A stretch of 46,639 nucleotides of DNA from a virus (Duplodnaviria; Heunggongvirae; Uroviricota; Caudoviricetes): IMG/VR virus record IMGVR_UViG_2529293141_000012; one strand, given 5' to 3'. Numbering within the stretch: the first letter of the stretch is position 1; each line of letters opens with the position of its first letter. Shown here in pieces: positions 9,354-17,052 of the stretch. The position numbers and the translations under genes are program-made. The notes beneath the pieces are model-generated. The model saw nothing but the letters and a program-made list of their open reading frames with translations, had not been told where the DNA came from and ran no database searches.

Positions 9354-9899
9354 ATGACTATGCAACCACTTACATACCAACAGACTAGCGGATTTAGCCC
9401 GACTGCGGTGATAAATCGTTCTCAAACAAAACAGGCGCCAGGCCACGAAAAAATCCGTGATGCCGTTCGCGCCTGGTCGGCTGCAGATAATCAGGATGTT
9501 GTTGCCGCACTCATTGTGAATGAGTATCGGGAGCAGGGCGGCGGCACCATCGATTTCCCTGATGATGTCAGCCGTGCACGCCAGAAGCTGTTCCGCTTCC
9601 TCGATAACAAATTCGATTCTGAAAAATACCGAAATAACGTGCGTGAACTGACCCCGGCAATTCTGGCGGTACTACCGCTGGAATATCGCGGCCACCTGGT
9701 TGAGCAGGATAGCTACATGGCTCGGCTGGCTGAAATGGAAAAGGAACTCAGTGAGGCAAAACAGGCTGTCATTCTCAACGCACCACGCCACCAGAAACTG
9801 AAGGAGATGAGTGAAGGCATTGTGTCGATGTTTCGTGTGGACCCGGATTTGGCTGGTCCACTGATGGCGATGGTCACCACCATGCTGGGGGCAATATGA
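9354..9899 (+). CDS. Hypothetical 181-aa protein in the cII position (possibly a CII/CP76-type regulator)
   Basis: Located between cro and O where lambdoid phages carry cII, but about twice the size of lambda CII; family assignment is from memory only. Confidence 0.45.
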   Translation: MTMQPLTYQQTSGFSPTAVINRSQTKQAPGHEKIRDAVRAWSAADNQDVVAALIVNEYREQGGGTIDFPDDVSRARQKLFRFLDNKFDSEKYRNNVRELTPAILAVLPLEYRGHLVEQDSYMARLAEMEKELSEAKQAVILNAPRHQKLKEMSEGIVSMFRVDPDLAGPLMAMVTTMLGAI

Positions 9900-10915: not shown

Positions 10916-11613
10916 AAAACATCGCCGCACAGATGGTTAACTTTGACCGTGAGCAGATGCGTCGGATCGCCAACAACATGCCGGAACAGTACGACGAAAA
11001 GCCGCAGGTACAACAGGTAGCGCAGATCATCAACGGTGTGTTCAGCCAGTTACTGGCAACTTTCCCGGCGAGCCTGGCTAACCGTGACCAGAATGAACTG
11101 AACGAAATCCGCCGCCAGTGGGTTCTGGCTTTCCGGGAAAACGGGATCACCACAATGGAACAGGTTAACGCAGGAATGCGCGTAGCCCGTCGGCAGAATC
11201 GACCATTCCTGCCATCACCCGGGCAGTTTGTCGCCTGGTGCCGGGAAGAAGCATCCGTTAACGCCGGGCTGCCAAACGTCAGCGAGCTGGTTGATATGGT
11301 TTACGAGTATTGCCGGAAGCGTGGCCTGTATCCGGATGCAGAGTCTTATCCGTGGAAATCGAACGCGCATTACTGGCTGGTTACCAACCTGTACCAGAAC
11401 ATGCGGGCCAATGCGCTTACTGATGCGGAATTACGGCGCAAGGCTGCCGATGAACTGTCCTGTATGACCGCGCGAATTAACCGTGGTGAGGCGATACCTG
11501 AACCAGTAAAACAGCTTCCTGTCATGGGCGGTAGACCTCTAAATCGTGCACAGGCTCTGGCGAAGATCGCAGAAATCAAAGCTAAGTTTGGGCTGAAAGG
11601 AGCAAGTGTATGA
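10912..11613 (+). CDS. P: Replication protein P (DnaB helicase loader)
   Basis: 233 aa, MKNIAAQMVNFDREQMRRIANNMPEQYDEKPQVQQ… near-identical to lambda P. Confidence 0.97.
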   Translation: MKNIAAQMVNFDREQMRRIANNMPEQYDEKPQVQQVAQIINGVFSQLLATFPASLANRDQNELNEIRRQWVLAFRENGITTMEQVNAGMRVARRQNRPFLPSPGQFVAWCREEASVNAGLPNVSELVDMVYEYCRKRGLYPDAESYPWKSNAHYWLVTNLYQNMRANALTDAELRRKAADELSCMTARINRGEAIPEPVKQLPVMGGRPLNRAQALAKIAEIKAKFGLKGASV

Positions 11614-11783
11614 CGGGCAAAGAGGCAATTATTTATTACCTGGGGACGCATAAGAGTTTCTGTGCGCAGGACGTTGCTGCGGCAACAGGTGTGACAGTAA
11701 CCTGCATAAATCAGGCAGCAGCTAAAATGGCGCGTGCAGGAATCCTGGTCATTGATGGTAAGGTCTGGCGAACGTTTGTTTAA
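11610..11783 (+). CDS. ren: Ren, C-terminally truncated (57 aa versus about 96 in lambda)
   Basis: My own translation MTGKEAIIYYLGTHKSFCAQDVAAATGVTVTCINQAAAKMARAGILVIDGKVWRTFV; homology ends at the junction with AT-rich inserted DNA. Confidence 0.6.
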   Translation: MTGKEAIIYYLGTHKSFCAQDVAAATGVTVTCINQAAAKMARAGILVIDGKVWRTFV

Positions 11784-11929
11784 CGGTTAGCTACTCAGGA
11801 TGATAGGGCGCGGCAAGTGAGTATGAAGCGGATTTTCAGGAATGCCATCAGAGTTTGGAAATAAAGTGGGTTTTCTAGTGGCAAGAGACTTGATAATATT
11901 TAGTTCTTTGAAGCCAAGGAGATAGGGTT

Positions 11930-12424
11930 ATGAGAAAATTTATTTTAGCCTTTGTCATAAGTGCCTCGTTTACAGCAAATGCTGGTGTAGAGAAGTTAGG
12001 GCCGTGGATAACAAAGTCTGAGATAAATAAAATGACTGACCAGACTGACTTTGTGGCTCTTAATTTATCACCAGATTCATATAACAAAGCAGGTACTGAT
12101 CGTGCAACTTCACTGGTGTTGCGTTGTAGTGATAACAAAACAGATGCCTATTTATCATTCAATGATTATATGGGTTCGGACAACCCAAGAATTACAGTGC
12201 GGTTAGATGGCGGAAAGCCGGTCAAGAGTGTTTGGGGTGGTGGGGAAGGCGGTGATTCTGCATTTGCTCCACAACCAATACAATTTATAAAGACCTTGGC
12301 TAAGCATAAAAAAGCCATTTTTGGGTTTGAACCTTATGGATCAACTATGCAAGTAGTTGAGTTTGACTTGTCTGAGATTGATAAGGTTGTGGAAAAAATT
12401 TCACAGTCTTGCAATTGGAAATGA
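11930..12424 (+). CDS. Hypothetical secreted protein (Sec signal peptide), accessory moron
   Basis: 164 aa, signal peptide MRKFILAFVISASFTANA; strong SD AAGGAG; AT-rich; intrinsic terminator immediately downstream. Confidence 0.6.
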   Translation: MRKFILAFVISASFTANAGVEKLGPWITKSEINKMTDQTDFVALNLSPDSYNKAGTDRATSLVLRCSDNKTDAYLSFNDYMGSDNPRITVRLDGGKPVKSVWGGGEGGDSAFAPQPIQFIKTLAKHKKAIFGFEPYGSTMQVVEFDLSEIDKVVEKISQSCNWK

Positions 12425-12443
12425 CAAAAAAATTTCATATGAA

Positions 12444-12468
12444 CCCAGTTGGCGCTGGGTTTTTTATT
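12444..12468 (+). terminator. Intrinsic terminator after the secreted-protein gene
   Basis: Hairpin CCCAG-TTGGCG-CTGGG followed by TTTTTTAT. Confidence 0.55.
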
Positions 12469-12888
12469 TCAGTAGCCAATAATGCATTCAAAATCTCTTA
12501 CTTGAGAAACGGCCTATTTGAGATTTCAGTCGTGGCAGGATGATCAGTTGATTCGAGTATTGACGCATTTACGTTCTGAACGGCTGTAATAAAGTTGCGG
12601 GAGAGAAATGCCGCTAGTATTTTGTAATTAATTGAATGCCGACGGTTTAATGAGAAGTCAAGAACACTACTTGTACTATAATCGTTCGATGTTAGTGAGG
12701 GTTTGATGCAAAAAATGAAGTGATTGACCCTAAATTTGCGCGATCAGCGACAGATTGTACACCGAGATCCTGTGGGCTGGAATTTGCAGAGAAATACCGA
12801 AAATGATATCCAATATTGTTTTCAGTTCCTACATCATACCTGATAAGGGTATAATCATAAAAATTAGGATAATTCAAGTTATAATTGT

Positions 12889-13305
12889 ATGAATAAAAAC
12901 GACCTTGAAGCATTATCTGACACTAGGCTTAATGAGGCCAAATGCTTGCTTGATCATGGCTTTTTTCATGGTGCATATTATCTTTGTGGGTATGCAGTTG
13001 AATGTGCATTGAAGGCCTGTATTGCCAAGTCATTTTTACAACATGAGTTTCCAAACAAAAAAGTCGTAAATGATTCATATACTCATGATTTGTCGCAACT
13101 TCTCAAAATTGCCAACTTACATCAAATTTTGATTGCTGACGCAAAAAATGATGTTTCGTTGGAGATTAACTGGTCGGTCGTTAAAGACTGGAGCGAGCAA
13201 TTTAGATACGACAATAACATAAGTAAAGCTATGGCCGAACAATTGTTTGATGCTGTAGGTGACCAAAATTCTGGAGTTTTGAAATGGGTAAAAGCACACT
13301 GGTAA
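12889..13305 (+). CDS. HEPN-domain-like protein (putative toxin or abortive-infection effector)
   Basis: 138 aa; helix GAYYLCGYAVECALKACIAK and downstream THDLSQLL resemble the HEPN fold signature; AT-rich; TATAAT about 35 nt upstream. Confidence 0.55.
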   Translation: MNKNDLEALSDTRLNEAKCLLDHGFFHGAYYLCGYAVECALKACIAKSFLQHEFPNKKVVNDSYTHDLSQLLKIANLHQILIADAKNDVSLEINWSVVKDWSEQFRYDNNISKAMAEQLFDAVGDQNSGVLKWVKAHW

Positions 13306-13685
13306 TCGGCAGAGAGTTGACAAAAGATATGGAATTCTCAGGTCAATTTTTATTAAAAAAACTCAAGTTACAGAATTTAACCATTGATGCTGCAATGTGG
13401 TTTTATTACCCAGATCTATCTTGGAGATATATTTTAGTTATCAGTGACTTCTCAGAACGTGGACCGGCAGAAATATATAGAAAAATCAGTGAGATAAATA
13501 GAAACAGCATATCAAAAAAGTATAAGCCGATACCATTAGAAGCAATTGAGGCTAAGGGGGATTCAGCTTTTATTTATAAAATGTTAAAAGGATTTGCTAG
13601 AGTCAACGATGGTAAAGTTCGCGTTTCTAATTCTATGGTAAATGGTTTAGAAATCGTTGACTGTCTGATCTATGAGTTAAAATAA
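13284..13685 (+). CDS. Hypothetical partner protein, translationally coupled to the HEPN-like gene
   Basis: 133-aa ORF overlapping the upstream gene by 22 nt with SD GGAG; no recognisable family; stem-loop at about 13761-13785 downstream. Confidence 0.45.
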   Translation: MGKSTLVIGRELTKDMEFSGQFLLKKLKLQNLTIDAAMWFYYPDLSWRYILVISDFSERGPAEIYRKISEINRNSISKKYKPIPLEAIEAKGDSAFIYKMLKGFARVNDGKVRVSNSMVNGLEIVDCLIYELK

Positions 13686-13906
13686 GAAATCTCTTGCTGG
13701 GTATCATTATTGTTTAAATGACTTTTGATTTTCAATAATCAACTTGTCATAATTAAGTCACCGGAGTTTGAACTCCTCCGGTGACTTCTGCGCTAAACGG
13801 GGACGTTTATGCGCACATACAATCCAAACTCTCTTCTCCCTTCACAGATGCAGAAATGCACCTGCGATATCTTGCATCCAGCGTTTGATCTCTGCGGAGG
13901 TGAAGC

Positions 13907-14362
13907 GTGAACTTCCCACAAGATGGCATCAAACTGCATCGCGGTAACTTCACCGCTATCGGTCGGCAGATCCAGCCTTATCTGGAGGACGGCAAATGCT
14001 TTCGCATGGTGCTTAAACCGTGGCGCGAGAGACGCAGTCTTTCCCAGAATGCACTCAGCCACATGTGGTACAGCGAAATCAGTGAATACCTCATCAGCAA
14101 GGGTAAAACGTTCGCTACTCCAGCTTGGGTAAAAGATGCTCTCAAACACACATATCTCGGTTATGAAACCAAAGACCTGGTTGATGTCGTAACCGGTGAT
14201 ATCACCACTATCCAGTCGTTACGCCATACCTCCGATCTTGATACCGGAGAGATGTATGTCTTCCTGTGTAAGGTTGAAGCCTGGGCGATGAATATTGGTT
14301 GCCACCTGACTATTCCACAGAGCTGCGAGTTTCAGCTGCTGCGCGACAAGCAGGAGGCGTAA
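13907..14362 (+). CDS. ybcN: YbcN-like nin-region protein
   Basis: 151 aa; sequence recalled as matching E. coli DLP12 YbcN; GTG start with SD GGAGG. Confidence 0.75.
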
Positions 14363-15969: not shown

Positions 15970-17052
15970 TTAGAACTGGTAAACCAGACCTACAGCAACG
16001 ATATCATCGGTAGCAACGCCAGATGCTTTCGTGAAATCGCTCTTATCAATCAGGTTGATTTTGTAATCAACAAAAGTGGACATATTTTTGTTGAAGTAAT
16101 AGGTTGCACCTACATCAATATATTCAACCAGGTCCTGATCACCCCACGCACCCAAGTCTTTTCCTTTAGATTGCAGGTAAGCAACGGACGGACGCAGACC
16201 GAAGTCGAACTGATATTGTGCAACTACTTCGAAGTTTTGTGCTTTGTTGGCAATATGGTTATTACCAAAAACAGTCATGTTCTGGGTTTCAGAATAGGTG
16301 GTAGCCAGATAGATGTTGTTCGCATCATATTTCAGACCAGCTGCCCATACTTCAGCATTTTGACCAGATGCATTCAGGCTGTTGTTACCGTAGATAACCT
16401 GATTATTAGTGCGGTCAGATTTAGCATAGGTTGCACCTACACCGAATCCTTCATACTCATAAGTAGTGGAGAAACCGAAACCATCACCATTAGCTTCAGT
16501 TACGTCAGTGCGGTCATTTTTACCCTGATACTGAGCAGCAAAGTTCAGACCATCAACCAGACCAAAGAAGTCGTTGTTACGATAAGTTGCAACACCAGTG
16601 GTGCGACCAGTCATGAACACATCTGTTTGGGTCCAGGTATCGCCACCGAATTCTGGCAGAACGTCAGTCCACGCACCGATGTCATATGCTACACCGTAGT
16701 TACGGCCGTAATCGATTGAGCCGTAGTCCCCGAATTTCAGGCCTGCAAATGCAAGACGGGTTTTGTCTTTGGAGGAGCCTTGAGATTCAGCGCGGTTGCC
16801 TTTGAATTCATATTCCCACTGACCGAAACCAGTCAGTTGATCGTTGATTTGGGTTTCACCTTTGAAGCCAAGACGGGCATAAGTAGTATCACCATCATCT
16901 GCATCATTAGAGGAGAAGTAGTGCTTGGCATTAACTTTCCCATATAGATCCAGCTTGTTACTGTCTTTATTATAAATTTCAGCTGCCTGAGCAGACATCG
17001 CCATCAGTACTGATGCAGCTACAGCAGAAATTGCCACTGTTAATTTTTTCAT
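15970..17052 (-). CDS. nmpC: Prophage-encoded general porin (OmpC/NmpC/Lc family)
   Basis: 360 aa with signal peptide [23 protein letters not shown], porin motifs and C-terminal …VGLVYQF; same location (between Q and lysis, opposite strand) as nmpC in DLP12 and lc in PA-2. Confidence 0.9.

Follow-up and report, generated by a model that had tools for sequence, protein, structure and literature searches.

The described systems closest to the gene pair reported here are built around HEPN proteins, whose usual partners are minimal nucleotidyltransferases (MNTs). For the AF0298-like HEPN-T proteins and for AbiV, Anantharaman et al. (PMC3710099) noted that the canonical Rx4-6H motif has lost its histidine but not its basic residue, that the helix 2-3 insert supplies a second, strongly conserved histidine, and that helix 2 contains an acidic residue. 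The kept basic residue, the insert histidine and the helix 2 acid could together form an alternative RNase site (PMC3710099). HEPNs without the motif were still scored as toxins, and the mechanism of this reported toxicity is unexplained (PMC3710099).

The pair, orfA and orfB, was found in a viral record (IMG/VR IMGVR_UViG_2529293141_000012, Caudoviricetes) of 46,639 nucleotides, and this whole stretch is referred to as the window. The window is 100% identical to NZ_CP101274.1, and it comes from an E. coli lambdoid prophage whose integration site is next to ybhC. Both genes lie on the plus strand; orfA (12889..13305) encodes 138 amino acids and orfB (13284..13685) encodes 133. Their products are named in RefSeq as 'HEPN domain-containing protein' and 'hypothetical protein', respectively, and a literature search that included accession numbers and system names found no published description of the pair.

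The genes are arranged in the order replication O-like, P, ren pseudogene, a 164-aa VasI/TagO-like gene, orfA, orfB, a 102-nt ORF, ybcN (ninB-like), ninE, ybcO, rusA, ylcG and quuD. A preliminary description of this DNA had recognised an AT-rich two-gene cassette lying between a truncated ren and the nin genes. The two ORFs and their composition were as it described, with a GC content of 0.33-0.37 in the cassette compared to 0.50-0.55 in the flanking phage genes, and the nin side and the accessory nature of the slot also held. However, ren does not adjoin the cassette, because the VasI/TagO-like gene (11930-12424), a separate moron, and its intrinsic terminator (12441-12462, from a terminator scan) stand between them. 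The ren gene itself (11610-11878) is a pseudogene with a frameshift and an internal stop according to RefSeq, leaving an ORF of 57 aa.

The VasI/TagO-like protein has a signal-peptide-like N-terminus (MRKFILAFVISASFTANA) and is named 'TagO' in RefSeq. It matched the Pfam family VasI (type VI secretion associated) at 26.7 bits, barely over the 26.5-bit cut-off, and also phrog_1848. On the other side of the cassette, the 102-nt ORF (13809-13910, 'hypothetical protein') overlaps the start of ybcN by 4 nt; it was found in every E. coli context examined, as a member of the nin region and not of the cassette. Elsewhere in the window, a 'toxin YdaT domain' gene (about 9360-9899) adjoins a cro-like HTH gene in the immunity region, and an ompC-like porin gene (nmpC/DLP12-like) lies on the minus strand, 3' of the Q antiterminator, at 15970-17052.

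The slot occupied by the pair is the P-to-ninB accessory region, and it holds the pair in several different E. coli prophages, including those of O157:H7 and O111. There, the pair is in the same slot and is preceded by a different cargo gene, a gene with a P22AR C-terminal domain, which takes the position of the VasI/TagO-like gene. Copies of the pair were present in 190 of 5,426 complete E. coli genomes (3.5%), always chromosomal, in single copy and at least 99% identical, and the carriers include O157:H7, O26, O103 and O111 prophages. A near-match search of GenBank phages gave no near match.

The first gene product had been read from its sequence as HEPN-like, and this identification was borne out by both a profile search and a structure model. 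orfA matched Pfam PF05168 with 27.8 bits (gathering cut-off 22; E 3e-6) over residues 12-118, and the same family is precomputed on most of its homologues. An AlphaFold (AF2) model built from 53 homologues had a pLDDT of 94 and shows an up-down bundle made of helices only, like the HEPN domains of known structure. The top Foldseek matches were ST0689 (1wol), TT1696 (1ufb), TM0613 (1o3u), AF_0298 (2hsb), 2q00 and sacsin (3o10), with TM-scores of 0.5-0.65 and probabilities of up to 1.0. When PDB sequences were compared with orfA, also by using a HEPN profile, no solved HEPN-T structure was detectable. orfA is therefore a member of the HEPN superfamily, in the HEPN-T clade (PF05168), on both its Pfam match and its fold.

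Homologues of orfA with 45-60% identity occur in many phyla, and their alignment shows a set of invariant or near-invariant residues: R13, G28, Y30/31, G34, Y35, E38, C39, K42, F54, P55, H66, N94, W95, W101, R106 and Y107. E38, K42, H66, R106 and Y107 are invariant across phyla, and the subfamily can be recognised by the signature GAYYLxGYAVECALKACIAK ... THDL ... NWxxVKDWSExSRY. The canonical R-x4-6-H motif, which the initial reading had also failed to see, is absent from the homologues; R106 is invariant, positions +4 to +7 are variable, and a histidine occurs there only sporadically. In the model, E38 is in helix 2 (residues 26-46), H66 is in the helix 2-3 insert, and R106 is in a short helical turn that ends helix 3, ahead of the last core helix. 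Three invariant residues of orfA (R106, H66 and E38) thus stand in the elements named for the AF0298/AbiV type (PMC3710099), a match that is positional. We propose, from conservation and the model, that E38, H66 and R106-Y107 make up an alternative active site.

The two genes overlap by 22 nt (13284..13305), and orfB has its own Shine-Dalgarno sequence, GGAG, at 13270..13273, 7 nt 5' of its ATG, so that the earlier observation of an overlap with a separate ribosome-binding site stands. This sequence comes from the HEPN codons for G129-V130 (GGAGT), G129 being invariant, and the ATG is formed by the last base of HEPN codon 132 and the TG of the invariant W133. The residues L6-V7 of orfB are read from HEPN W138 and the stop codon. 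The arrangement was followed in loci collected with a pattern scan in which each GTDB species was represented by one genome. The scan gave at least 577 HEPN relatives, with 80 loci kept, and 39 viral loci from IMG/VR were added to this HEPN-seeded set. In 107/120 loci, the start of a partner ORF of ~125-140 aa precedes the HEPN stop by exactly 22 nt, a jackhmmer search from orfB identified the downstream ORF as its homologue in 118 of the 120, and a strict Shine-Dalgarno core precedes the partner start in 64 of 86 non-redundant loci. The coupled arrangement is far beyond chance. The possibility of a chance ORF was rejected on conservation and dN/dS.

At one locus, in a Bryobacterales MAG (L076, 4001-4777), the HEPN and the partner are joined in one ORF of 258 aa, the reading frame shifting by one base within the overlap. 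Either the two genes are naturally fused here or the long reads contain an indel error, and the locus was not counted as evidence because the MAG is a long-read assembly in which a 1-nt error is possible. If it is a true fusion, it would be strong evidence of a physical interaction between the HEPN and its partner.

No recognisable motif had been seen in the 133-aa product of orfB, and searches of Pfam, NCBIfam and PADLOC likewise gave no match; its sole PHROGs match was phrog_5760, for which no function is given. Scanning 50 diverse members of the family singly against Pfam and PADLOC, and searching PDB sequences with phmmer and with the family profile, gave nothing consistent, and none of the 50 matched an HTH, RHH or AbrB DNA-binding domain. 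The family is nevertheless large. Whereas a word-based search returned only 32 close relatives, a profile built from 50 diverse downstream ORFs recovered 1,770 proteins, none of them named and none with a Pfam domain, and a HMMER search of the family against 1.84 billion cluster representatives gave 3,182 at E <= 1e-3. All of the best 150 of these 3,182 relatives are stand-alone proteins of 87-172 aa, with zero fusions.

The AlphaFold model of orfB (pLDDT 90.2) is a single, stand-alone alpha/beta domain with a disordered N-terminus and the order a1-b1-b2-a2-b3-a3-b4-b5. The conserved residues are G20, W39, D/E44, W47, R/K48, G60, Y65, R113, D126 and Y130. The polar ones among them are D/E44 in the b1-b2 loop, R/K48, Y65, R113, D126 in the last strand and Y130, and D/E44 and D126 are the only two conserved acidic positions. 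The nucleotidyltransferase catalytic motifs hG[GS] and DxD ([DE]x[DE]) are absent from the family, with no GS and no DxD on b2, and from these sequences it can be said firmly that orfB is not an active nucleotidyltransferase. Enzymatic control of the HEPN by orfB is therefore unlikely, and so is AMPylation of a HEPN tyrosine, since the catalytic residues for it are missing. Whether the fold itself is MNT-like is evenly balanced in our estimate. A Foldseek search of the model against the PDB gave nothing significant, with MNT antitoxins among the non-significant matches, and hhalign of the orfB profile with an alignment of five genuine MNTs (one from the locus flanks, found by a regular expression, and four from plasmids) returned a probability of 0.13%.

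The pair is no phage oddity: it belongs to a large family that has no name and extends over many bacterial phyla. The loci came from Acidobacteriota, Desulfobacterota, Chloroflexota, Bacteroidota, Gammaproteobacteria, Planctomycetota, Verrucomicrobiota, Nitrospirota, Spirochaetota and others. A complete module, with a HEPN of 52% identity and the same 22-nt overlap, was also present in an Aenigmatarchaeota MAG (L011, 1000-1799), which implies that either the module has moved horizontally between domains or the bin is contaminated. Purifying selection acts on both genes (dN/dS 0.05-0.12), and their pairwise distances correlate (r 0.77; Mantel 0/500), with the HEPN being better conserved than the partner (mean pairwise identity 49% vs 32%).

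The orfA-orfB pair is an autonomous bicistronic cassette without fixed neighbours. No conserved third gene was found, the 288 flanking ORFs falling into 260 clusters, and the nearest 150 neighbour proteins matched 166 Pfam families, most of them housekeeping. The lack of a third gene and the heterogeneous neighbours are typical of selfish two-gene cassettes. No enrichment in defence islands was seen in the flanks of the ~76 genome loci with a callable neighbour, where defence matches were scattered, and the flanks contained only one classical MNT.

The limits of the mobile unit could be drawn from diverged prophage copies with 66-79% nucleotide identity. Homology with these copies starts at about 12843-12847, ~45 nt before the HEPN ATG, and stops at, or just past, the orfB stop, and therefore the mobile unit is taken as 12844-13695. 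The conserved leader (12844..12888, plus strand) contains a perfect -10 hexamer, TATAAT, at 12850-12855, and GGGTATAAT is kept ~33-38 nt 5' of the HEPN ATG among the enterobacterial copies. This shared sequence suggests that a short AU-rich leader is transcribed from a promoter carried by the cassette. We refer to the leader as a putative promoter because a consensus scan flagged no full -35/-10 promoter in it. There is no obvious Shine-Dalgarno sequence ahead of the HEPN start codon, and searches for an operator-like inverted repeat upstream of the cassette and for Rfam families in the cassette region found none.

Downstream, a GC-rich hairpin of 12 bp (13755..13787, plus strand; RNA fold -20 kcal/mol, z -4.4) lies ~70 nt past the orfB stop. 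It has no U-tract and was not flagged as an intrinsic terminator by the scan; it is possibly a transcript end or an element of the module boundary, outside the minimal mobile unit. The hairpin opens a segment of ~120 nt (13755-13877 in the window; 4547-4667 in L121/L122), which in other E. coli prophages occurs 3' of the HEPN pair and again, with 91% identity, 5' of a different cargo gene. By sequence, this segment looks like a module-boundary or linker element flanking the morons in the P-to-ninB slot.

Decay of the cassette was found to be one-sided. The partner-seeded set consisted of metagenome contigs from an Acidobacteria-like 127-aa clade and gave 65 evaluable loci with an intact partner, at which the HEPN was intact in 48, a clear pseudogene in 16 and borderline in one (L169, which has lost only the last two HEPN residues; it was initially scored as disrupted). 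A HEPN pseudogene beside an intact partner was therefore seen in 16/65 partner-seeded loci and the reverse in 1/99 (Fisher p 1.2e-6), in two samples drawn from different clades and collections. Among the lesions were nonsense mutations, N-terminal deletions or frameshifts, and the erosion of almost the whole gene, and all 16 pseudogenes kept the ~10 final HEPN codons, in which the Shine-Dalgarno sequence and start of the partner are encoded. The best-scoring partner homologue (P0300) adjoins a HEPN remnant that has lost residues ~25-82, with E38, K42 and H66, and carries R106G; this intact partner was found, identical, beside the internally deleted HEPN in four metagenomes. Among the E. coli copies, the sole lesion seen also truncates the HEPN. 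The bias fits a situation in which loss of the HEPN is harmless and loss of the partner alone is not, and its direction suggests that the HEPN is the toxin and orfB the antidote. Retention of the partner beside a dead HEPN could also reflect an independent function of the partner.

Taken together, we lean slightly towards reading this moron of the P-to-ninB slot as an autonomous module of a toxin-antitoxin-like kind, in which a HEPN RNase toxin is neutralised by the binding of orfB. The cassette would be expressed from its own promoter in the lysogen, and orfB would be made in fixed stoichiometric linkage, its start codon and Shine-Dalgarno sequence being embedded in the last ten HEPN codons. 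orfA would be a metal-independent and probably dimeric RNase, cleaving RNA by means of R106, the arginine retained from the degenerate Rx4-6H motif, together with H66 from the helix 2-3 insert and E38 from helix 2. Its partner would have no enzymatic activity; this small alpha/beta protein may descend, in a catalytically dead form, from the MNTs that usually accompany HEPNs, and would neutralise the HEPN through binding rather than AMPylation. Depletion or displacement of the partner, whether by loss of the element, shut-off of transcription or a phage trigger, would free the HEPN, which would then cleave RNA and arrest growth. This release could stabilise the prophage and/or abort competing infections, and an anti-phage function of the cassette is plausible. 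The preliminary description had suggested a toxin-antitoxin or abortive-infection pair, an interpretation that our results support in part.

How far the conflict is directed at phages is where the nearest rival departs from this reading. It is possible, although doubtful, that the cassette is a dedicated abortive-infection or superinfection-exclusion system in which the fast-evolving partner acts as a sensor, releasing or activating the HEPN RNase when it recognises a phage component. Such a system overlaps our best explanation and differs from it in biological role and trigger only. The faster evolution of the partner compared with its effector is consistent with it, as is the variable slot, from the replication genes to ninB/ybcN, that the pair occupies in several E. 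coli prophages, including O157:H7 and O111. There are precedents for prophage HEPNs in HepS and Tha, and the cassette has its own conserved -10 element and an AT-rich, foreign composition. All 53 HEPN members tested (53/53) also matched the PADLOC candidate PDC-M28A, weakly (best E 7.5e-12), but the PDC systems are predicted candidates and the partner matched no PADLOC model. Outside the enterobacteria, moreover, the pair has housekeeping neighbours and no defence-island enrichment, and the frequent HEPN pseudogenes with a kept partner fit the decay of an addiction module at least as well.

Those chromosomal copies among housekeeping genes could also be taken to mean that the pair has no part in conflict. 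By analogy with kanamycin nucleotidyltransferase or GlnD-type fusions, the two proteins might form a non-toxic, heteromeric nucleotide- or RNA-binding complex with a regulatory or modifying role, the HEPN being a substrate-binding or regulatory subunit and the partner NTase-like. The first interpretation of HEPN-T proteins was that they bind the substrate as a subunit for MNTs, HEPNs without the motif can act as binders with no catalysis (PMC3710099), and the nearest structural neighbours of the partner have the NTase fold, in Foldseek matches that are non-significant. We nonetheless consider this improbable, as the partner is without any NTase catalytic motif, the HEPN keeps a set of invariant polar residues of the kind seen in active sites, and one-sided decay is unexpected in an obligate two-subunit enzyme. 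The patchy, horizontally transferred distribution, carriage by prophages and AT-richness of the cassette point rather to a selfish or conflict element. A reversal of roles, with the partner as the toxin and the HEPN as the antitoxin, was the original prediction for MNT-HEPN pairs before experiments were made (PMC3710099), and many type II systems begin with the antitoxin gene, as this cassette begins with the HEPN. It is nevertheless very improbable, because experiments with HEPN-MNT pairs found the HEPN to be the toxin (PMC3710099), the partner has no enzymatic motif, and the HEPN decays while the partner stays, which is the opposite of what is expected of an antitoxin; the direction of decay led us to reject the partner as toxin.

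Returning to the binding-neutralised RNase module, the pair may not be very surprising to a specialist, but as a model for HEPN toxins without the motif it is clean and abundant. The family is very well conserved, small and abundant and has a clear candidate site (E38, H66 and R106), and is therefore tractable for explaining toxicity in HEPNs that lack the motif. Its partner is a large protein family without a name, a Pfam entry or a solved structure. If the partner is a degenerate MNT, the pair would be a record of how one toxin class passed, in evolution, from being neutralised by an enzyme (type VII) to being neutralised by binding. As the cassette is present in 3.5% of complete E. coli genomes, including pathogen prophages, it would matter to the biology of these pathogens if it affected the stability of prophages or the exclusion of phages. 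An annotation already existed for the HEPN half of the pair. What appears to be newly observed is the conserved family of partners, the hard-wired 22-nt overlap and the one-sidedness of decay. A broader reading, which we put forward tentatively and regard as somewhat unlikely in full, is that of an unnamed, phylum-spanning toxin-antitoxin or abortive-infection family (~3,000 sequence clusters), in which a dead NTase-fold partner provides stoichiometric, hard-wired control instead of AMPylation, the HEPN cuts RNA by a His/Arg/Glu site distinct from Rx4-6H, and the cassette excludes competing phages in prophages of enterohaemorrhagic E. coli.

Compared to the described systems, the pair would work most like the HEPN-MNT modules (HepT-MntA, type VII; Shewanella SO_3166/SO_3165, Aphanizomenon, Legionella), but it does not belong with them. 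The MNT gene is almost always 5' in those modules (PMC3710099), whereas the HEPN is 5' in 118/118 paired loci here, a reversal already remarked on for the single locus. orfA is in the PF05168 HEPN-T clade and not in DUF86 and lacks the Rx4HxY motif, and orfB, being without hG[GS] and DxD, is not expected to AMPylate and has no sequence-level homology to MNTs. A type II-like toxin-antitoxin system is resembled in the compact, autonomous cassette and in the asymmetric decay, but the putative antitoxin is modelled as a single alpha/beta domain, and no HTH, RHH or AbrB domain for autoregulation was found in 50 members of its family.

AbiV of Lactococcus (PDB 9bj5-7) is a small HEPN that was grouped with HEPN-T for its alternative histidine (Anantharaman et al., PMC3710099), and it is an experimentally shown RNase within a two-component antiphage toxin-antitoxin system. 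It was among the structural matches of orfA, weakly (TM 0.3-0.4), and its antitoxin is an RNA (type III), whereas the partner of orfA is a conserved, folded protein. HepS, the solo HEPN anticodon nuclease of Gifsy-1, is also carried by a lambdoid prophage, in the accessory region that adjoins the replication genes, and lysogens express it. However, it is a single gene with a canonical RX4-6H motif and no partner, is tetrameric, is activated by the tail-tip protein J, and was not among the top structural matches of orfA. Equivalence with HepS was therefore rejected, HepS being a solo gene with the canonical motif. In the PADLOC candidate PDC-M28, the PDC-M28A profile has the same length (138) and matches every HEPN member tested, but the match to orfA of the window is weak (29.7 bits) and no partner homologue matched any PDC-M28 component; because of this weak match we regard PDC-M28A as a sister family and not the same one.

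The AF0298-like HEPN-T proteins (2hsb; TM0613 1o3u, TT1696 1ufb, ST0689 1wol) share both the Pfam family and the fold of orfA. In both, the histidine of Rx4-6H is absent, the arginine is retained, and a conserved histidine is present in the helix 2-3 insert. What sets orfA apart from the solved members of this group, to which it has no detectable profile-level similarity, is an invariant signature of its own and an obligate partner, encoded 3' of it, in which no MNT can be recognised.
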